From contig JALAGF010005593.1 in assembly GCA_030167865.1 (NCBI GenBank), positions 1 through 64,000 of the forward strand: a DNA stretch of 64,000 bases. The letters run 5' to 3'. The stretch comes from Craspedostauros australis (lineage: Eukaryota). Numbering within the stretch: position 1 is the stretch's first letter; the number at the start of each line of letters is the position of its first letter. The notes below the pieces were generated by a model. That model was not told where the DNA came from, searched no databases, and worked only from the letters and a program-made list of their open reading frames with translations. This document shows positions 19,421-41,529 of the stretch, in pieces. Position numbers and translations under genes: made by a program.

Positions 19421-20673
19421 TAAACTTTAGCAAAATAAGTACATATTCGGAATCTACGTAAAATTTTGTCGAGGGATACTTAATTTAAAAATCGGGAGAG
19501 TTGTGGATCAAAAGTTATAGACCTTGCAATAGTTTTGGTCTTCGGGCATTGTAGACCTTCCTTAGACTTCGCTGGGTATCGCCAAAACTCGCTGATGATG
19601 TCACACCTGTTCCTATTTTGAATTATTTGTCGCTTGCTATCTGGTTCTGACACGATTCACAATTTTCCACGTCACATTTTCCTTCAATGTTTCTGCACTT
19701 TCGACTGTTTGTTTTGCCGCACGTGGATGCAAATCATCGTGGGTTTGCTCCAAATTCTCGTCTTCCTTGGCTTTGCACCGTCCAAATTCTTCTTCGTCAC
19801 AACCAGAATCNNNCAGCGTTGGTTGCGCACTGGCGCTCGCAGTCATACTTACCATTGTGCACTCCATCGTTTCAGCGGTTTTTGACTTCTTTTCTTGTTC
19901 TTTTTTGACCTTGAGATAGTCCGTGATGAGGTATGTTTTTACTCTAAGTGGTGATACGTGTAGTTGAGCGTGCGAGTCTGTTTTCACCCGTTCCATCGTC
20001 ATCAGTTGTTGGCGTGCGTCGTACTCCGACATTCTGTTCCTTGAGTCATGGCAAGCAAGTACGCAGATTTTGATCAGCTCTGCCAACACATAGTCAGGAT
20101 AGGCTCAAACGATTGAGTCTTCTTTGCGGCGCAACCCGGTGTTGTAACAGGAGGAAGATCCATAGCAGCAGTTGTATCCTTCCACATTGTGTCGTGACCA
20201 GCAGTTTCCATGAGGTTGTTGCAGAGGGCTGTTTTTAATACATTCGCTTCACTCTGTTTCCCACTCTTCTGGGCTTTATGCCTCATCTTTGCCTTTTTGT
20301 ATCCACTGGTACTGGTTGGGGTGACTACTTGTGGTCTTCCTTCACCGTCGCGCCAAGTTCGTGCACAACGGAGCACTCCCAAGCCTCTTCCTCCACCAAA
20401 TTTGTCATCGGTGACATTCGAAGCTTCAATTAGCCAAGCTTTCTCATTCTTGTATTGGATCTTGTGAGTGTTGGGAACACCAAGCATGTTTGCAGCCCAT
20501 TGAGGTCTTGGGATCGTACAGTGAGTCAGCCACTTGCCCTTCAATAGGGAAGCATCAACCAGCAACATTGTGGTGCCTTTGATGTCTCCAAATTGCAGGG
20601 CTTTCAAGATGATCGCCGTCCCTTCCATCGCTGTCGCCGTCACCTGTTGTCTCATCACCATTGCCATCCTTGC

Positions 20674-20836
20674 TGTCAAAGTGCACAAGTAACTACTGAA
20701 GACATATTGGCCTGTTGTTGCGTGCCCTGGTCGGAGCTCTTGATCTTTTATTGTGAGTTGTCCAAAGACAATCCCCTGACCAGTATTTTGACTAATATGA
20801 TTAGTAGAGAGGTAAAAAGTACAGAGAAAGCTGTCA
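20674..20836 (-). repeat. 3' LTR (163 bp)
   Basis: Direct repeat of 26295-26456 with ~18 substitutions + 1 indel by hand alignment; PPT AAGGGGAA (20837-20844) abuts it on the minus strand. Confidence 0.95.
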
Positions 20837-20848
20837 TTCCCCTTGATC

Positions 20849-23800
20849 TCAAGGTGGACCCCCGTAGAACAGGGTTGTGGCAAGAAGTGTTAGTGTTGGC
20901 CTCACCAATGCCTTGATGAGCATGTCAGTGAAGTTCTGAGCTGATGGGACGTGGACTGGAACCATTGTCCCAGCTCCCACAGCCTCACGGACTCAGTGAA
21001 ATGATATTGCCACATGCTTCTTCTGCAATGGGCTGTCTGCGATCGTCGTTTTCGAGATCACCACATTGTTGTCACAGAATGTGACCGTCGGTGATTGGAC
21101 GCGGACTCCCAGCGATCGGAGTGCATATCGGAGTGCAATGATTTCTTCCGTCACTGATCGCATTGCGTTGAATTCTGCTCCATATGTAGACGTTGTGACT
21201 GATGTCTGCCGCTTGCTTGAGAAGTACACAGGCGTCCTGCCAAGGAAAAAGATGATCCTGGTGTTTGATCGGCGTGTGACAAGATCGTGCGCATGGTCAG
21301 CATCGACGAATGCATACATCGGCAGCTCCGGATAGATTGACTTTGGTGACCGGTCGTCGACGTCCTCCTGTGCCTCAGGGTATTCTTCCTTCATTTGCGC
21401 CACCAATTCTAGGTTGGACGGTGTCGAGTTGAAGTTGTCGAATATCATGGGTCTGGAGTCGATTTGTGTTCTGAGTGTGGACATACTCTTGAGATAGCCC
21501 CATATCTTGAGTGCTCTTGCTAGATGTCCTTTCCATTGTGATGCAGTGAATTGAGAGAGTAAAGAAGTTGCAAAAGTGACGCCGAAGCGTCCAAGTTGAA
21601 TGACCCAGTTCAGCATGCCGATGAGCTGCTGGAACTGTTGGTGTTCGTCTGGTGTGAGTAGTTTGGAGTCATCCGTTTCCGGATGGTCCTTGTCCCACAT
21701 GGGAACATGCTGGTCATGGTGTGTTCCATGCTGCCGTTCGACGTTATCCATCGCGTTTGCGATGTATTTGTCACATCCAATGCTCCATTTGCCTTTCACA
21801 TTCCTGGAGTCGTTGTTGCCCAGATAGTATTTGGGTGGTCCAATGTCATTGATGGTGTAGACTTGCTGGATGACCTTCATGTATTGGTCTGGTTCNNNNN
21901 NNNNNNNNNNNNNNNNNNNNNNNNNNNNNNNNNNNNNNNNNNNNNNNNNNNNNNNNNNNNNNNNNNNTGTTTACAAAGTGAGCATGGAAGCTTTGCGCAC
22001 TCGATTGGAGTCCATACAATGCCTTCCTGAGTACGATTGTCTGACCCTTTCGGAAATCTCTCTTTTCCTGCCCTCACGTACATCTTCTCGTTGATGTAGG
22101 CATTGACGAATGCATTCCCCACGTTGCCGCAGAGTTGCTTCAGCTTTTTTGCGTCCATGATGACATCGAGTATCCGTATACTGGTTGATTTGACGGTTGA
22201 TGAGTATACTCTGATGTTGTCAGCGAGTTCGATGAGGTGACCGCCGGCTACCAGCCGCCCCTTGCGCCGCAGATCCTGTTTCACAGCGAAGATGAGCCAG
22301 AGCTTGGTGCTCTGGTAGTACGATGAAGGTCGGTGAGTGGATGGATGGAATTCAAAGCAATCGAGGTCAATCAGAGCGTCGATCTCTTTCTTTGCTGCGT
22401 CCTTCCACCATGTGTTGCCATTGGCTTCGTCAAGTTGGAGTGTGTGTCGCATGTTGCGTGGCACTTCTACACCATATTGGAATACTGTAGCGAAGAAGTC
22501 CTTGTTTGGCTTCTTCTTTCCTGGTCGTATGCGCCTCAGGATGGCAATGCTGTCGTTGTTGTCGACTGTGAAGATGTGGATGCGCTCGGTTCGTCGCATG
22601 TGTCTGCGTATCGCGCGAACAGCGTGCTTTGCCCATTTCAGTATTGTCATTGACTGTGGATTGTGCCTGTCATGCCGTTTTGGCTCGTTGGCAATGATGT
22701 ATCGCGCCACGAGCTCGGGATGGTCTGCCCTCAGGATGTTGTATCGGAACCATTGAGTTTTGTTGTTGTCCCATTTCACATTGAGATGGAGATGTCCGTC
22801 TTGGAAGGAGTGGCCTGCGATGGATGTAATTGCTGGGTCGTTCGTATCGTCTGTTGTGATCTGATTTTGGAACATCTATTCATGCTCGCTCAGCCAGAGT
22901 GTCGATACGCCCCTGAATCCGCTGCTGGGGAGGATCTGGAATCCTCACTGCTTCATAGTCATCAGATTCTCTCGAGATGTCTGCAGTTGAGAGCTTGTCT
23001 TCCCCTTTGCCATTGGATATCATGCTCGTAGGCTTGCTGTTGTGGTTGTCGTTGTCGTCAATGATGACATTCTGCTGACCGAACCATCAGTCGTCATGCG
23101 GAATAGCATTTTTGTTGACCACGACGCCCCTGGTCTCCAGTTGTCCCTCCTCAGGAATGCGAGCAGCCGCCCCCAACTGCACGGGAATCGCGCCGATGGC
23201 CTCACAGACCTGTCAAGCGAGTTGCACCGACATCGTCTTGGTTCGCGCTCGTTGCCCCAAGTTGTCTCTGGTAGTAGTGTGTATGAGATCGAGGCGTGCA
23301 ATGCGCTGAACTTCCTTGTTGGTGATTTGCGGAGCGCTTGCGTCTTCTGCAATTCGTGGTTCCACAATGTTCTGTACCAGGGCGGTGCCTTTGGTTACAT
23401 CGTCGCCCCATGGCAATCATATGTTGTACGTGAAAGGGTCTCCATGGTCCCATGAGATTCCCAGGAAGTAACCTAGTTTGAATGGGTGATGTGGAAACTT
23501 GGCCATTGGCTCGAAATACCAGACCTGTTGAAAGAACGTGAACCTGAACATGGAGATGTCCAGAGTGTTCCCACGGAGCAGTTCAATGAGATTCTTCCAT
23601 TGGATGCTCTCCTTCGCCATGTAGTTCAATACATTGATGGCGTGTTGTACCGTGTAGCACCAGAAGGCGAGCGGTACGGACGCCGCCCAAAGCAATTTGT
23701 ATGCGTGTCGCTTGAGGTCGCTGATCGCCCGCTCCGCTCGGTTTTGATTCTGATTCATGGAAGCAGTGAAGGAGTGTTTGATCATGTACCGCATCGCCAC

Positions 23801-26240
23801 AGCCTTCCATGCCTTGACGGTTTGGACCTGTGAGTAGTCTGAGATGAGTACGTTTGGTGCCCTGACCTGCACGATGAAGCCGGTGAGCGTCCCTGGCGCC
23901 ATTGCCTCTCGTCGGAGCGGCTTGACCCAGATGAATTTGGACTCACTGTGTGCAAAGAGCTGGAAGCACTTGTAGTGTCAAATGGATGGGACCGTGGAGA
24001 AGAATAGATCGGTTTCCACTCTCCCCTTGATTCAGTGTGGCCGTAGCGCGCCCGCTCGCTGCGCACGGTACTGCCTCGGGATGAGTCTTGACTCCGCCTC
24101 GATGGGAGTATCGGCCAGCTGTGTCGATGCTGCTTTCGTTTTCTCGACCACCTGTTGTGGGAGATGCCAGAAGACCTTGTTGAAGTCAACACTGGTGTTG
24201 GATCGCCGAAGGCGTCTGTGTCTGTTGCATATAGTAATATGCTTAGTTTGTGCTAGCTTGCAAGCTGTCAGTTTACGAATTGGGATGCGCAGGGTATTGC
24301 CGTCATGATTGACCAGCGGGATGCTGATGTCGCCAGATGATATCCGTTGCTGCCTGTCGTATTGTCGAAGCCAATCGTAGATGCTGATGTCAGACGTGCG
24401 CATGTGGTGTGTATTGAACAACGACTCCATCTGCCGTGGATGCTTGTCGAGAGCCACGTAATATGCCTTGATGAGGATCACTCCGCCTTCTGGCGGGTCG
24501 TACGCTGCCGCTGCATCAACCACCGGAAACGTCTCGATTTGCGAGTCCACTGTCGCCCCTCGGGGTGGAACTGCTGCTGGTGATTTTGGGCAACCGCCCA
24601 TCCAGACTCATGAACAATGGTGCCGTCCGCGCCTGAGTCTAGAATGATATAGCCATGGCTACTATTCGTTACTCTTGCCCGTCGAATCGTGTGCTCTGTA
24701 TGCGGGTCGGCGCCTCTTGGACGCGACTCTCGTAGCGTATCCGGGGTCGTATGCCCTGGCCCGCTCTCCACGGCCTTTTGCGTCAAGTCCACACTGTCTT
24801 GGTCCTTGATGCATATGGCGACCTCTGACTGCTGGCACGAAGTGCCCATCATTGGTTGTCAGGAGCAATTGTCACATGGTCCATACTTCTTGGTTCGATT
24901 GGTCTTGTTGCCAAATCTGGTGCGCTTGTTGGGTTTGCGCTGAGTGTGATGCTCCTGGGTCTTCGCGCACTCAGCGGGTTTGTTGCGCTTGAACGTCTCC
25001 TTGCTGATGAGCTCTCCTGTCTTGCGGAAGTGACGCGAGGATTCCACCACAATCACTTGTGCGGGGGTGGGAAGGCTACAGAATACAATATCTGGTAGTC
25101 GGTACATCGGTGGTTTCTTGCGATCCCCGGATGTAGATTCAAACGGTCGCTTGCGGTCCGTTCGCCTGTCCTTCTGGTGTGCGCGTCGATTGCGCCGTGG
25201 AGATCTGTCGATCTCCGCGTTGGAGAGGACCTTGTTGTGCTTCATGAGAGTCTCGCAGACCCAATTGAAGGACTCTTCTGTCTCTTGGAGGCGAGAGACC
25301 GTACTGGTGAATCGCTCATCGCGAATGTTGTGGAAGAATCTTGCAATCTTCTGCTTGTCAATAATGGCCTTGCCATTGTCATTGATTGTCTGAACAGACA
25401 TGGAGAAGTCATTGACGAACGCGCTGAATGATCCAGATCCGTCGTAGACGAGTTTGGACAGTTTGCCTTCCTCTGTTGCCACAATGTCGGCCCTGTTCTC
25501 AGTGGATTCGTATGTGCGGATGAGGGCCTGGAAGGCTGCATGACCGCTGTCTTTCCACTAGGATCATGTAGTTAGCGTGTCCTTTGCACGTTTTCGAGTT
25601 GAGCACTGCGTAGAAGTGGGTGTCGACGTCCTCGCAGTAGTGGGCCCAGTGTGTCTCTTGCATGTAGTCTGCGTATCTGGTCGTGACCAGCTGGCGGATG
25701 AAGTCGGTCTTCCATTGATACCATTCGATGTTGATTCCGCTGAATGGCTCCACCTCTAGCAGCATGACTTTGTCATACTTCCATCCGGTTGGCGTTGATG
25801 GCGATCGGCGTACTTCCAGTGGGCGCCTTGGTGAGTGTACCACAACCTTGCAGCTCATTACCTCGGAAAGTTCACGATTGGCGGCTTCCTTCATCGCAAG
25901 TTTCAATTGCATTTGGGTTGCCTTGCTGGCGACAGGAGTCTTGATGGTTGGTACCTCATACCCGGTTGTTGTAGTGAACTCGTTGATGGCCGCCCAATTG
26001 GTTGCTTGGTCGATTTGCCGTTCTTTCGTGAAAGCAAAGATGCGAAGGATGTTCTCAATGTTGATCGAGGTGAGTGTTGGTGAGAGAGCCAGCGCTTGAA
26101 TGATGTTTTTTGTCTGGACTCTTGATGGCATGTTCGATCCTTCTGAGTTGCTTGTTGATGAACTCCATTTCTTTGTCATCGAGGTCAGCAAGTTCCTTGG
26201 TTACGGCTGTCAAAGCTCGGTTGTTGATCGGTCTTGCCAT
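20849..26240 (-). pseudogene. gag-pol polyprotein pseudogene (multiple frameshifts and stops, one N gap in RT)
   Basis: Gag fragments (EPFSGINIEWYQWK; LVYDGSGSFSAFVNDF), protease ILDSGADGT, integrase (LISDYS; NQNRAERAISDLK; FWCYTVQH), RT (IFAVKQDLRRKGRLVAGGH; VGNAFVNA), RNase H (FVDADHAHDLVTRRS; STYGAEF; FCDN; KKHVAISFH). Confidence 0.93.
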
Positions 26241-26280
26241 GGTGGTCGATGTTGTAAAGGTGATAAGCTTGTTGGTAAAC

Positions 26281-26294
26281 CACAACTCTTAATC
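26281..26294 (-). other. Putative primer-binding site complementary to the tRNA-Lys(CUU) anticodon arm
   Basis: The minus strand directly after the 5' LTR reads GATTAAGAGTTGTG (no TGG); the + strand ACTCTTAATC equals the conserved tRNA-Lys(CUU) anticodon stem-loop, nt 31-40. Confidence 0.65.
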
Positions 26295-26456
26295 TGTCAA
26301 AGTGCACAAGTAACTCCTGGAGACGTATTGGCCCGTTGTTGCATGCTCTGGTCAGAGCTCTTGTTCTTTTATTGTGAGTTTTCCGAGGACAATTTCCAAC
26401 CAGTACTTTGACTCATATGATTTGTAAAGAGGTAAAAAGTACAGAGAAAGCTGTCA
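26295..26456 (-). repeat. 5' LTR (162 bp)
   Basis: Minus strand reads TGACAGCTTTCTC...GCACTTTGACA; direct repeat of 20674-20836. Confidence 0.95.
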
Positions 26457-27401
26457 CCTGCCATCATCACCATTGTTTCTCTCGCCAACACCACCTTCAT
26501 TGCCATCACCATTGCCTTCCATGATGGGATCATTCAGGTTGCTTTCCCCATCACCATCTTTGTTGCCATCACCACCATCGTCCTTGACAACAGCATTGCT
26601 GTGGCTAGCACCACCACCTTNNNNNNNNNNNNNNNNNNNNNNNNNNNNNNNNNNNNNNNNNNNNNNNNNNNNNNNNNNNNNNNNNNNNNNNNNNNNNNNN
26701 NNNNCGTCATCATGGCTGTCTATGTCAATGCTGCCCCAATCAACACCACTGTCGCTGTCAGCATCATCGTGGTCATCGAATGCATGACGGATAACGCCAT
26801 GTCTGTCATGAAATAGGAGTAGTACCTTTGTGTGCGGTCTGGGGTAGCCGTTGTCAAAAACGGAATGGTTGATGTAGATCTTCATGAACAAGTTGAAAAA
26901 CGCAGATGATAGTTGGATTGGATAGATCGCCCTGATTATTTTTTGTCGATGGCATGGATGATACCAATGGANGGGTTGTTGACAAACAGGATGGCGACGA
27001 GGAGCACGTAGCCTGTGACGAACAAGGCAATTCGCATGCACAAGAAGCTGCAGGAGAAGCGAGACAACCAACTGCGGAAACCAGGGAATAGCGCAATGAA
27101 ATCCCCATCATGAAAACATCAAGATAGTGACGTTGCGATAGGAAGAAACGCTGACGAGGCGCATATCGCCAAAATATAACCGTAATTAACCGAAAAGACA
27201 CTATCGAAAATATTAAGTCACGAACAACCAAGACCCATTTCCGAAATTTGAGGAGGAAAAATAACACGGCGTTGTGCGTGGTAGATAAGGGCGTATAACT
27301 CTTGAAGCAAAGGTCGGATGAAGACCATTTTTATATGGATAAGATCGCACGGTGGTCTAGATTATGTTTTTATATATCATGTTAAATTTTACGAAAATCT
27401 G

Positions 27402-39417: not shown

Positions 39418-41031
39418 CTAAAACAGTTCGCTGTTACTGTCTCGACAATGCTGCAGTCTCTTCTCGATCCGTTCCTGAATAGCAGGGATGATGCTGCCGT
39501 ATCCCTCCTTGTCAAACTTTTCCAACGCATGAGTGCTCATGACCACCAGATTGTCGATCGTCGCTGGTTTGGTGTAGTCCCAACGCACGAGCTCCAACAC
39601 CGTTCCCAGTCTTGCTCCCGTCACCCCGCAGCGGTTCCTCCAAACGCCCATCAAGTACTCAACGTCATCGTGATCTATCTCCAGCGGTCCCATGTACAGC
39701 CCTGGTGCCTTTGACTCCGACTCTGAGTTGGTCTTGGAACTGGCGCCTCCTTGCGCTGCTGCTGCTGACAAGGACGCTGACAGGGACAAGGACGCAGCAC
39801 CACCACCCCGAACCAACTTGCCGTCGCGGAGCCAGCCTTCGCGTCGACGCAAATGCTGGAACAGCTTGTTACGAACGTTGCGGCTGAGCCGCTCTCCTGT
39901 CACGGGCTGATGGATCGGCTTTTGGCCGAGCTCGCACAACGCGAGCGCCGCAAGAGATTGGCCCATGATGGCAGGCAGTGGTCCCAGCACCGGCAGCACT
40001 CGGATGCGCATTCCATCCACTGCACCGAATTCAGACTTGTTCGCCGTCGCCTCCTGCTCTTCGGTGAGGTCGGCCAACTTGGCGACGGTCTTTTCGGAGC
40101 TGTAAATGATGGTCATTTGGTCCATGTCATCGAGGTAATCATCCGCCGGAAGGCCCTTCCCTGCTTCTGCTGTTGCTGCTGCATCTCCAGATTCTGAAAG
40201 TGGCTCCTTTGGATACTTGACGAGGACTTTCTTCATTGTGCGTTTCAGGGTCTGCCGGAGCTTGCTCGCCAACGGATCGCGAGACGCCGTGCGCAGATCG
40301 CTGACGTGCAGGCGCGTCATGTCGCTCTTCCCACCAGCCCCCATGCACGAGTAGACGCGGATGTTGTGGCAGATGCAGTAGGCCAGCAAGGCTGCCTTCG
40401 TGGGGACGTCGTCGATGCAGTCAATGACCAGATCCCACTGGTCGTCCTTGTTGGGAAGTTCCAGGAGCGCGGGTCCCGACTCGGCAGTGTACATGGCAAC
40501 CCGGGCATCCACCTGCGTGTCGGGCCGCAATCCCAGCTTGCCCAAGAACGCCTGCACGCAGGTGACCTTGGGGGTTCCCACGTCCTGCAGAGTCGCACAG
40601 GCATGACGATTGAGGCTGCTCAACGTGACCTGATCAAAGTCGATGAGGCGCATGTACTCGGCGCCGCCGCGTCCCAACATCATGGCCGTGTGGGATCCAA
40701 CGCCACCCAACCCGACGACGCAGATCTTGGCATTCTGCAGGGACTTGATACCATCTTCGCCAAAGTACAGCGTGTGGCGTGACAACTGCTCTTCACGCAG
40801 CTCAGGTGAGATTGTGATGACCTTGGTCTTGGAAGCAGCGCCAGATGCTGACGCGAAATCAAGCGATGTGCCTGCGGAACGCGATGCGCTCGAAGAAGAT
40901 CCCTTGTCGCCCGTCCCTTCCTGCTTTGCTTTGAGCAGCCAGCTCAAGATGAGGCTGCAGGACGCACCGATGGCGATGCCAGCCACCAAATTCTGCACCT
41001 GCGCGTTCGTGCTAGTGCTTCTTGACGCCAT
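39418..41031 (-). CDS. tRNA threonylcarbamoyladenosine dehydratase (TcdA/TCD1-like, ThiF family)
   Basis: N-terminal hydrophobic anchor, EQLSRHTLYFG, VVGLGGVGSH, LIDFDQVTLSSLNRHA, IDCIDD, CMGAGGK, DPLASKLR, RIRVLPVLGPLPAIMG, C-terminal ELVRWD...NLVVM. Alternative ATG at 41070. Confidence 0.92.
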   Translation of the reverse strand: MASRSTSTNAQVQNLVAGIAIGASCSLILSWLLKAKQEGTGDKGSSSSASRSAGTSLDFASASGAASKTKVITISPELREEQLSRHTLYFGEDGIKSLQNAKICVVGLGGVGSHTAMMLGRGGAEYMRLIDFDQVTLSSLNRHACATLQDVGTPKVTCVQAFLGKLGLRPDTQVDARVAMYTAESGPALLELPNKDDQWDLVIDCIDDVPTKAALLAYCICHNIRVYSCMGAGGKSDMTRLHVSDLRTASRDPLASKLRQTLKRTMKKVLVKYPKEPLSESGDAAATAEAGKGLPADDYLDDMDQMTIIYSSEKTVAKLADLTEEQEATANKSEFGAVDGMRIRVLPVLGPLPAIMGQSLAALALCELGQKPIHQPVTGERLSRNVRNKLFQHLRRREGWLRDGKLVRGGGAASLSLSASLSAAAAQGGASSKTNSESESKAPGLYMGPLEIDHDDVEYLMGVWRNRCGVTGARLGTVLELVRWDYTKPATIDNLVVMSTHALEKFDKEGYGSIIPAIQERIEKRLQHCRDSNSELF

Positions 41032-41529
41032 TCTCTCAGTCTTCCTGTATTGTGGGATCGGCAGACGCATGGTAGCGTGGATCAGTGCATGCACGTGACC
41101 ACGTGCGGAGGAGGACGACGGTGGCGTGGTTGGAGGTTGCGGATGGAAAACAAAGATGACATCGCTTGGTTTTGGGCTTTTTGGTCGTGGTTGCGGACGC
41201 TCGCGGCCACATGCCAGACCGTTCTTTGATGCACGACTACGGCGACTCACTTGATCAAAACACTGGAACCAGAAATCGTGGTGAGAAAACACACCAAACA
41301 CAACACCATCACACACACACCAAACACACAACTGATGGAACAGAGATGTTGGTGACACAATACCAATACCAATGCCGATAATACCATAATTCGAAGAAGA
41401 GTAGTGTCGTATCGTGCTCTCTACAGGTTCTGGGTGGTTGGGAAGAGACCGGAGAAGGGACTTCAAGAGGCATCGATTCCAGTTCAGGACAGCAGGAGTA
41501 AAGCACGAGCGTCATAGAGCAGCACCACC

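Follow-up and report, generated by a model that had tools for sequence, protein, structure and literature searches.

A 64,000-nucleotide (nt) stretch of the genome of the diatom Craspedostauros australis (GenBank assembly GCA_030167865.1, contig JALAGF010005593.1, positions 1 to 64,000; hereafter, the window) harbours an old, dead Copia-like retrotransposon. The 15 nt that directly follow its 5' long terminal repeat (LTR) are probably the relic of a primer-binding site, inherited by this Copia-type, CoDi-like element from an ancestor that was primed by half of a tRNA-Lys(CUU). While that ancestor was active, a cut between positions 40 and 41 of cytoplasmic tRNA-Lys(CUU) would have released a 5' fragment, and the site would have annealed to the 3' end of that fragment. 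Pairing would have run over tRNA positions 27-40, taking in the anticodon stem's 5' strand, the entire loop and, on the 3' side of the stem, two bases, and the fragment would have primed minus-strand strong-stop DNA, as initiator tRNA-Met (tRNA-iMet) does in Drosophila copia. The register, with position 40 opposite the first post-LTR base, appears to be common to the whole family of related elements, among which the tRNA itself has probably been swapped several times between Met (elongator-like), Ile, Asn and Lys. For the family, the half-tRNA mechanism seems well supported; for the window copy, it is probable.

A candidate primer-binding site abutting the 5' LTR

The candidate site, GATTAAGAGTTGTGG, begins at the first base past the CA (26295) that closes the 5' LTR. 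The pentamers flanking the element, GCAGG and GCAAG, agree at four of five positions and thereby fix the LTR end at this CA, 26296-26295. On the plus strand, 26281-26294 reads CACAACTCTTAATC and 26266-26280 reads AGCTTGTTGGTAAAC; to judge from the relatives, the core of the site would be the 14 nt at 26281-26294. The complement, CCACAACTCTTAATC, holds CTCTTAA, with the anticodon CUU, then TC, and ends at tRNA position 40. An earlier note on this DNA, made from the letters alone, had given the post-LTR letters and their coordinates, had remarked on the lack of a TGG-type site and had read a tRNA-Lys(CUU) loop ending at position 40 in the complement, and in all of this it was correct. Its further suggestion, that the adjoining upstream sequence resembles a D-arm, did not hold up. 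A search of 26200-26330 with Rfam returned no tRNA match at E<=10 (two snoRNA matches, at E ~8.5, are of the kind expected by chance), and an ungapped comparison with the human 5' half upstream of position 31 gave 5/30 identical bases, counted by eye, which is the chance level; any D-arm likeness needs gaps. ARAGORN detected no tRNA gene in the window or in any of the 80 scanned metagenome loci.

The window 15-mer is unique, with one match at three or fewer mismatches against 1.37 expected by chance. With a match count so near the chance level, the window alone cannot show a site beyond chance; the related loci do.

Related elements share the register

Relatives were collected with a profile built from 30 aligned RNase H sequences, which was used to fetch DNA independently of the primer site. 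The search yielded 80 metagenome loci and one from prokaryote genome bins (L081), giving 81 loci, which are cited here by L numbers; the same profile run against viral contigs found no relative. Because the loci were picked by protein similarity alone, their post-LTR sequences constitute an unbiased sample. A locus could hold a junction if it extended 4000 nt or more upstream of the RNase H match, or 300 nt or more downstream of it; 69 of the 81 have such a junction window. Contigs frequently run in the order RNase H, polypurine tract (PPT), LTR, leader and gag, and these contain either an LTR shared by tandem copies or two LTRs merged by the assembler. Uninterrupted gag-pol open reading frames (ORFs) of 1648-2345 codons occur in L006 (176-5569), L041 (1082-8119), L030 (581-5527) and L032 (93-5963); such intact frames suggest that active members of the family probably exist in marine and freshwater communities.

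An anticodon-loop complement follows the LTR end (mostly ...CA or ...TA), in the register of the window, in 31 of the 69 loci, or in 29 if two weak cases are set aside. Ten loci are of Met type, carrying GATTATGAGACTGA, or GCTTATGAGACTGA in two. Fourteen are of Asn type, with GATTAACAG, then TC... in most; exceptions within this type are L071, with one change in the anticodon complement, and L010, where the site follows ...GAC. The Ile type comprises three loci and two weak, identical contigs, all with a GT(T/A)TATCAGACCCA-like site that has C opposite tRNA position 34. The Lys type is found in two loci, L078 (GATTAAGAGTCATG) and L030 (GGTTAAGAGCC), whose junctions are placed with an uncertainty of 1-3 bases.

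That the post-LTR motif should be kept among related elements, as the earlier note expected of a genuine site, is borne out by these typed loci and by the conservation of the motif itself. Mean pairwise identity over positions +1 to +14 is 0.95 in the Met group (n=10) and 0.82 in the Asn group (n=14), against 0.25-0.59 in the adjoining 14-nt blocks on both sides. The conserved island thus appears sharply bounded and, in the Met group, its 14 nt would equal tRNA positions 27-40. The Met block GATTATGAGACTGA is the exact complement, at 14/14 positions, of TCAGTCTCATAATC in human elongator tRNA-Met and is not complementary to initiator tRNA-Met, both as given in the available part of PMC8216282. 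The two Met-type loci with GCTTATGAGACTGA in place of this block are L002 (3459) and L009 (4925). The variant implies a tRNA-Met with G, not U, at position 39 (a U31-G39 pair), and is host-specific variation of the kind that a real tRNA match predicts.

Several controls bear on the same point. In 325,759 nt, the pattern G[AG]TT(ATG|AAC|AAG)AG has 32 occurrences on the coding strand against six on the other, where chance would give about 7.5 per strand under the assumption of equal base frequencies. Reverse transcription needs two cis elements, the primer site and the PPT. A motif-free count of 11-mers in the junction windows returned 27 words common to at least six loci, and these are of just two kinds: the top words come from the primer site (Asn in 12 and 10 loci, Met in 8) and from the PPT and LTR start (9 loci). 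In L041, which has a true LTR pair with 96.5% identity, the motif stands after the 5' LTR only. A scan for the classical 3'-end tRNA-iMet site, covering two 12-nt motifs, found no exact match in any locus; near-matches with up to two mismatches are scattered over both strands. A single one, in L052 at 2261, lies at a plausible distance; it was rejected, as a 798-codon ORF encloses it on the other strand.

In the Asn-type family represented by L048 (117-139 and 7647-7657) and L059 (4048-4056), the LTR ends in GATTAACA, which repeats the opening 8 nt of the primer site next to it (...GTTAGATTAACA, then GATTAACAGTCTCGG across the junction). The same LTR end is present in the 3' LTR, before unrelated flank. 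It may be the trace of a slip during priming or strand transfer.

The tRNA type of the window site

We consider it likely that the window site is of the Lys(CUU) type. Its first 10 nt are shared with L078, and 9 nt, ATTAAGAGT, are shared with the site of the fungal element FunCo1, ATTAAGAGTCT. Human tRNA-Lys(CTT), in the available part of PMC8216282, contains ACTCTTAATC, and 10 contiguous nt (positions 31-40) match the window complement; the complement of L078 matches this tRNA one base further. The stem part of the site differs from the Met block at 5/5 positions and from the nearest Asn block at 3/6. The T at 26284, opposite tRNA position 30, may well have arisen by a C-to-T change at a CpG after insertion. 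This decay is plausible because the T precedes a G, because L078 has C there, and because two-thirds of the differences between the LTRs are transitions. As an alternative pairing, U in the primer site could pair with G30 by G-U wobble. If the Lys assignment is true, family copies would carry GATTAAGAG..., and younger copies would have GATTAAGAGTCGTGG-like sites.

Probable primer exchange across the family

A quick maximum-likelihood tree was computed from 69 RNase H rows, after 12 loci with more than two stops or fewer than 170 residues, including Met-type L038, had been dropped. The window element is sister to a 13-row clade, with a value of 91 in the Shimodaira-Hasegawa-like approximate likelihood ratio test (SH-aLRT). 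In the tree, Lys-type sites turn up three times, in separate places (window, L030 and L078); Asn, the most common type across the wider family, is found across both halves. This scatter of primer types argues that the register is ancestral and that the tRNA has been exchanged repeatedly.

The anticodon complements found in the primer site are ATG (Met), ATC (Ile), AAC (Asn) and AAG (Lys), each of which is one base from two others. Plus-strand copying of the primer into the primer site is established retroviral behaviour. A switch of primer could accordingly need little: one point mutation would let a new tRNA fragment anneal, and plus-strand copying of that primer would then rewrite the stem part of the site.

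Weighing the alternatives

A number of observations count against a Lys-primed ancestor, or against extending the pattern to every relative. All typed rows of the sister clade (9/9, L002 and L009 included) are of Met type, and the window branch in the RNase H tree is 0.97 long, as expected for a pseudogene. The window holds a single copy, which is dead, with broken ORFs, 88% LTR identity and no sister copy to compare. Positions 27-30 of human tRNA-Lys(CTT), a human and not a host reference, do not match the window, and the A at tRNA position 30, opposite C40, makes a mismatch within the presumed tRNA stem. The complement of the Lys loop, AAG, is a single base away from those of Asn and Met. 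Among the relatives, 38 of the 69 loci are untyped, and the pattern can be called family-wide but not universal; some of the untyped contigs stop inside the LTR or enter true flank (L005, L019 and the 3' end of L059), and the junctions of L032, L033, L036, L037 and L052 could not be placed by eye. The proposal of the earlier note that this lineage uses the half-tRNA mechanism with a Lys tRNA is therefore upheld in its first part, as sites in the same register recur in the relatives, and has to be narrowed in its second, as the tRNA varies and the sister clade is of Met type.

The Met-type sister clade, the single-base distance of AAG from ATG and AAC, and the age of an element whose LTRs have diverged to 88% would all suit a site that was originally of Met or Asn type and that took on its Lys look through mutations after the death of the element. 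We regard this as unlikely, since the stem differs too. Counted by eye, the site departs from the Met block at 6/14 nt and from the closest Asn site (L060) at 4/15, so that four to six changes would be needed where the LTR divergence of 19/163 columns leads, by simple arithmetic, to an expectation of about 0.9 changes per 15 nt per copy; the Lys assignment needs none or one. The independent Lys-type sites of L078, L030 and FunCo1 also speak against a decayed Met or Asn site.

It is far less probable that the motif has been kept for a reason unconnected with tRNA, such as packaging, dimerisation or integrase recognition, or that it is a chance look-alike, its sense strand resembling the arm of tRNA-Leu(AAG). 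Any anticodon arm has a complement that looks like an arm too, and the strand therefore matters in calling such sites. Viral contigs provided an example: a scan with the window 15-mer, one base widened to R, returned 46 stretches, among which no tRNA-Lys was present, and in two phage contigs, L089 (370-445) and L113 (371-446), the pattern coincides with part of a tRNA-Leu(AAG) gene that is encoded on the opposite strand and whose anticodon arm is the reverse complement of the 15-mer pattern. This overlap is a mirror coincidence. An explanation without tRNA also gains from the fact that priming in this family is proposed from DNA sequence, a point that tells against the half-tRNA mechanism as well. 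What such an explanation leaves unaccounted for is the manner in which the sites vary, for the three variable bases and the next stem bases change together and spell real tRNAs (Met, Asn, Ile and Lys). The 14/14 match of the Met block is to elongator tRNA-Met, and the sense direction would call for an anticodon AUG; the restriction of the motif to the 5' LTR in L041 is a further point. In length and in place the block moreover suits a primer site, and for copia the mechanism has been proven (Kikuchi 1986, via the available part of PMC10275265). Some LTR elements, such as Tf1 or those of the plant TAR lineage, are known to prime themselves (PMC6317226 and PMC5445492, in their available parts). 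Self-priming, by a fold of the transcript's own 5' end onto the site, receives next to no credence here. Within the 5' LTR, no more than 5 consecutive nt of the 15-mer find a complement (4 nt in L041), and 5 nt is the modal value of 500 shuffles, 262 of which gave 5 and 168 more. As the LTR complement is no longer than in shuffled sequence, self-priming was rejected.

Comparison with known half-tRNA systems

Drosophila copia is primed by a tRNA-iMet cut in the anticodon stem (Kikuchi 1986, via PMC10275265), and the same priming by the anticodon stem-loop of tRNA-iMet is stated for yeast Ty5 in the available part of PMC10886601. [quoted passage not shown] They differ in the tRNA, initiator Met as opposed to Lys(CUU), and in the kind of evidence, as copia priming is biochemically proven whereas that of the window family is read from DNA. 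The Met-type relatives of the window element have an elongator-type arm, unlike the initiator used by copia and Ty5.

The fungal Copia element FunCo1 provides a Lys precedent, its site ATTAAGAGTCT being complementary to an internal region of tRNA-Lys according to the available part of Donnart et al. 2017 (PMC5445492). FunCo1 and the window element share ATTAAGAGT and, probably, an internal tRNA-Lys site. The hosts of FunCo1 are Pezizomycotina, however, and the nine shared nt are followed by C-T where the window has T-G; the two are likened by the site alone. In plants, half-tRNA sites are described for the Ty1/copia lineages Osser, Bryco and Gymco-II (1/2 tRNA-Met) and Bianca (1/2 tRNA-Ile), with half-molecule sites exclusive to Ty1/copia and the primer type characteristic of the lineage (Neumann et al. 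2019, PMC6317226, available part). Bianca resembles two of our loci, L011 and L016, which are of Ile type with C opposite inosine at position 34. The plant lineages differ from the window element in their hosts, and the available part of that paper mentions no Lys or Asn half-tRNA type. In rust fungi, Copia elements and the terminal-repeat retrotransposons in miniature (TRIMs) named Helenus have sites for the anticodon loops of the Tyr, Ile, Asp, iMet and Asn tRNAs, the primer type having changed at least five times (Kojima 2024, PMC10886601, available part). They differ from the window element in that their hosts are fungi and their tRNAs are in part others, among which Lys is not named in the part of the paper available. 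Given the Lys site of FunCo1 and the primer changes reported by Kojima, neither a Lys half-tRNA site nor primer switching is new.

For the diatom CoDi elements we found no description of a primer site in the literature, although supplements may hold one. The term 'tRNA' is absent from the main text of Maumus 2009 (PMC2806351), where the sole 'PBS' is a buffer, and the main text of Llorens 2009 (PMC2774666) has neither PBS nor tRNA. The CoDi-A clade of diatom Copia elements is reported to carry a chromodomain at the C-terminus of the integrase (Llorens et al. 2009, PMC2774666). A chromodomain-like module is present in the clade of the window element (L006, 3416-3805), and Pfam Chromo was matched in 7 of 15 homologous segments at E<0.1, with only L081 above the cut-off and without a match in the window's own segment. 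Taken with the report of Llorens et al., this module points to an affinity with CoDi-A, which the window element also resembles in its diatom host and, probably, in its Copia-type reverse transcriptase (RT) and in the position of the module after the integrase. The likeness is one of host and domain features.

Implications

The window element would extend priming by a 3'-truncated tRNA, a known but uncommon mode, to diatom Copia elements and so to a new host group. The comparative picture is one of a fixed register (tRNA positions 27-40) occupied by four tRNA species, with switches by single-base steps. For annotation, LTR pipelines that seek only 3'-end tRNA sites would miss or discard such elements. 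It also becomes testable in culturable diatoms which nuclease makes the 1-40 fragment, and whether its supply limits transposition.

A hexamer in the leader, ACCAAC, offers a speculative lead, and only that, towards a second contact with the tRNA. It lies within 70 nt past the primer site in the window, L078, L048 and L010 (5-60 nt, in loci of different primer types), with ACCAAT in L053, and is complementary to a tRNA D-loop of the sequence GTTGGT. The motif was picked post hoc from the data, and two of the loci that carry it are related.

A broader conjecture, which we judge improbable when taken as a whole, is that the entire diatom Copia clade, including the intact and possibly active L006 and L041, depends on 5' fragments, cut at 40/41, of the elongator tRNAs for Met, Ile, Asn and Lys, and that the supply of these fragments gates retrotransposition. 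Long tRNA fragments have been reported from iron-starved Phaeodactylum (PMC4247016), and stress activation of diatom Copia elements is known (PMC2806351). If the conjecture were true, stress-induced tRNA cleavage would be mechanistically coupled to that activation, and primer selection would be aided by contact of ACCAAC in the leader with the tRNA D-loop.

Anatomy of the element and its insertion site

The element spans 5.8 kb of the minus strand, from 20674 to 26456 (Table 1). Its LTR pair is the sole long direct repeat within the window, which holds no second copy of the family. The two LTRs are identical in 144 of 163 aligned columns (88.3%), the differences being 12 transitions, 6 transversions and 1 gap.

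Table 1. Features of the Copia-like element in the window
Feature	Position	Strand	Details
Target-site duplication, 5' copy	26457..26461	-	GCAGG, matches the 3' copy at 4/5
5' LTR	26456..26295	-	162 nt, TGACAG...TTTGACA, TG...CA ends
Candidate primer-binding site	26280..26294	-	GATTAAGAGTTGTGG; complement of tRNA positions 40 to 26; loop CUCUUAA, tRNA-Lys(CUU)
ACCAAC motif, possible second contact with the tRNA D-loop (speculative)	26271..26276	-	In the leader
gag ATG	26238..26240	-	Frame stops after 62 codons
gag region	24859..26237	-	Stops and frameshifts; without Pfam match
Protease-like region	24478..24858	-	ILDSGADG in translation, motif read by eye; without Pfam match
Integrase-core-like ORF fragment	23417..23977	-	...ISDYSQ...NRAERAI..., motif read by eye; without Pfam match
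Chromodomain-like module	22570..22830	-	Between integrase and RT; tblastn to L006 segment, E 1.6e-15
RT, Copia type (RVT_2), N-terminal part	22012..22287	-	Pfam E 0.0038, 17.3 bits, under the 31.6-bit cut-off
Assembly gap	21896..21967		72-nt N run inside RT
C-terminal RT and RNase H	20993..21895	-	Open fragment, 300 codons
PPT	20837..20844	-	AAGGGGAA; adjoins the 3' LTR
3' LTR	20836..20674	-	163 nt, TG...CA ends
Target-site duplication, 3' copy	20669..20673	-	GCAAG

A Pfam match, to RVT_2 and below the cut-off, was obtained for one of the seven window fragments; the same cut-off is exceeded in two intact relatives, L006 at 47.7 bits and L041 at 87.6 bits. Pfam rve had no match in the window fragments or in these two relatives, and L041 shows a weak match to a DDE transposase (E 4e-4) upstream of RT. 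The L006 polyprotein, compared with the sequences of solved structures, gave no match. In the window, L006 and L041 alike, the polyprotein ends directly after RNase H. Ty1/copia elements have the domain order PR-INT-RT-RH, and the integrase-like motif read by eye in the window likewise lies upstream of RT. At E<=1e-3, 169 homologues of the RT/RNase H fragment were found, with identity reaching 66% in the closest. Among the RNase H homologues, one is labelled a Ty1/Copia ribonuclease HI, and one, the closest that is named, comes from the diatom Ditylum.

The insertion site is a repeat-rich open frame. The flanks at 20074-20673 and 26457-26620, read on the minus strand, carry GGTGATGGCAA-type repeats that encode a product rich in Gly, Asp and Asn, and the presence of these repeats on both sides indicates that what the insertion split was either a coding region of the host or an ORF of low complexity. 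The window copy being a dead relic, its effect on the host is limited to this split of the repeat-rich ORF. Elsewhere in the window, a host ORF at 39418-41070 (minus strand) is similar to tRNA A37 threonylcarbamoyladenosine dehydratase (Pfam ThiF), and its best named relatives, at 54-58% identity, are from the pennate diatoms Nitzschia, Cylindrotheca, Pseudo-nitzschia and Seminavis.

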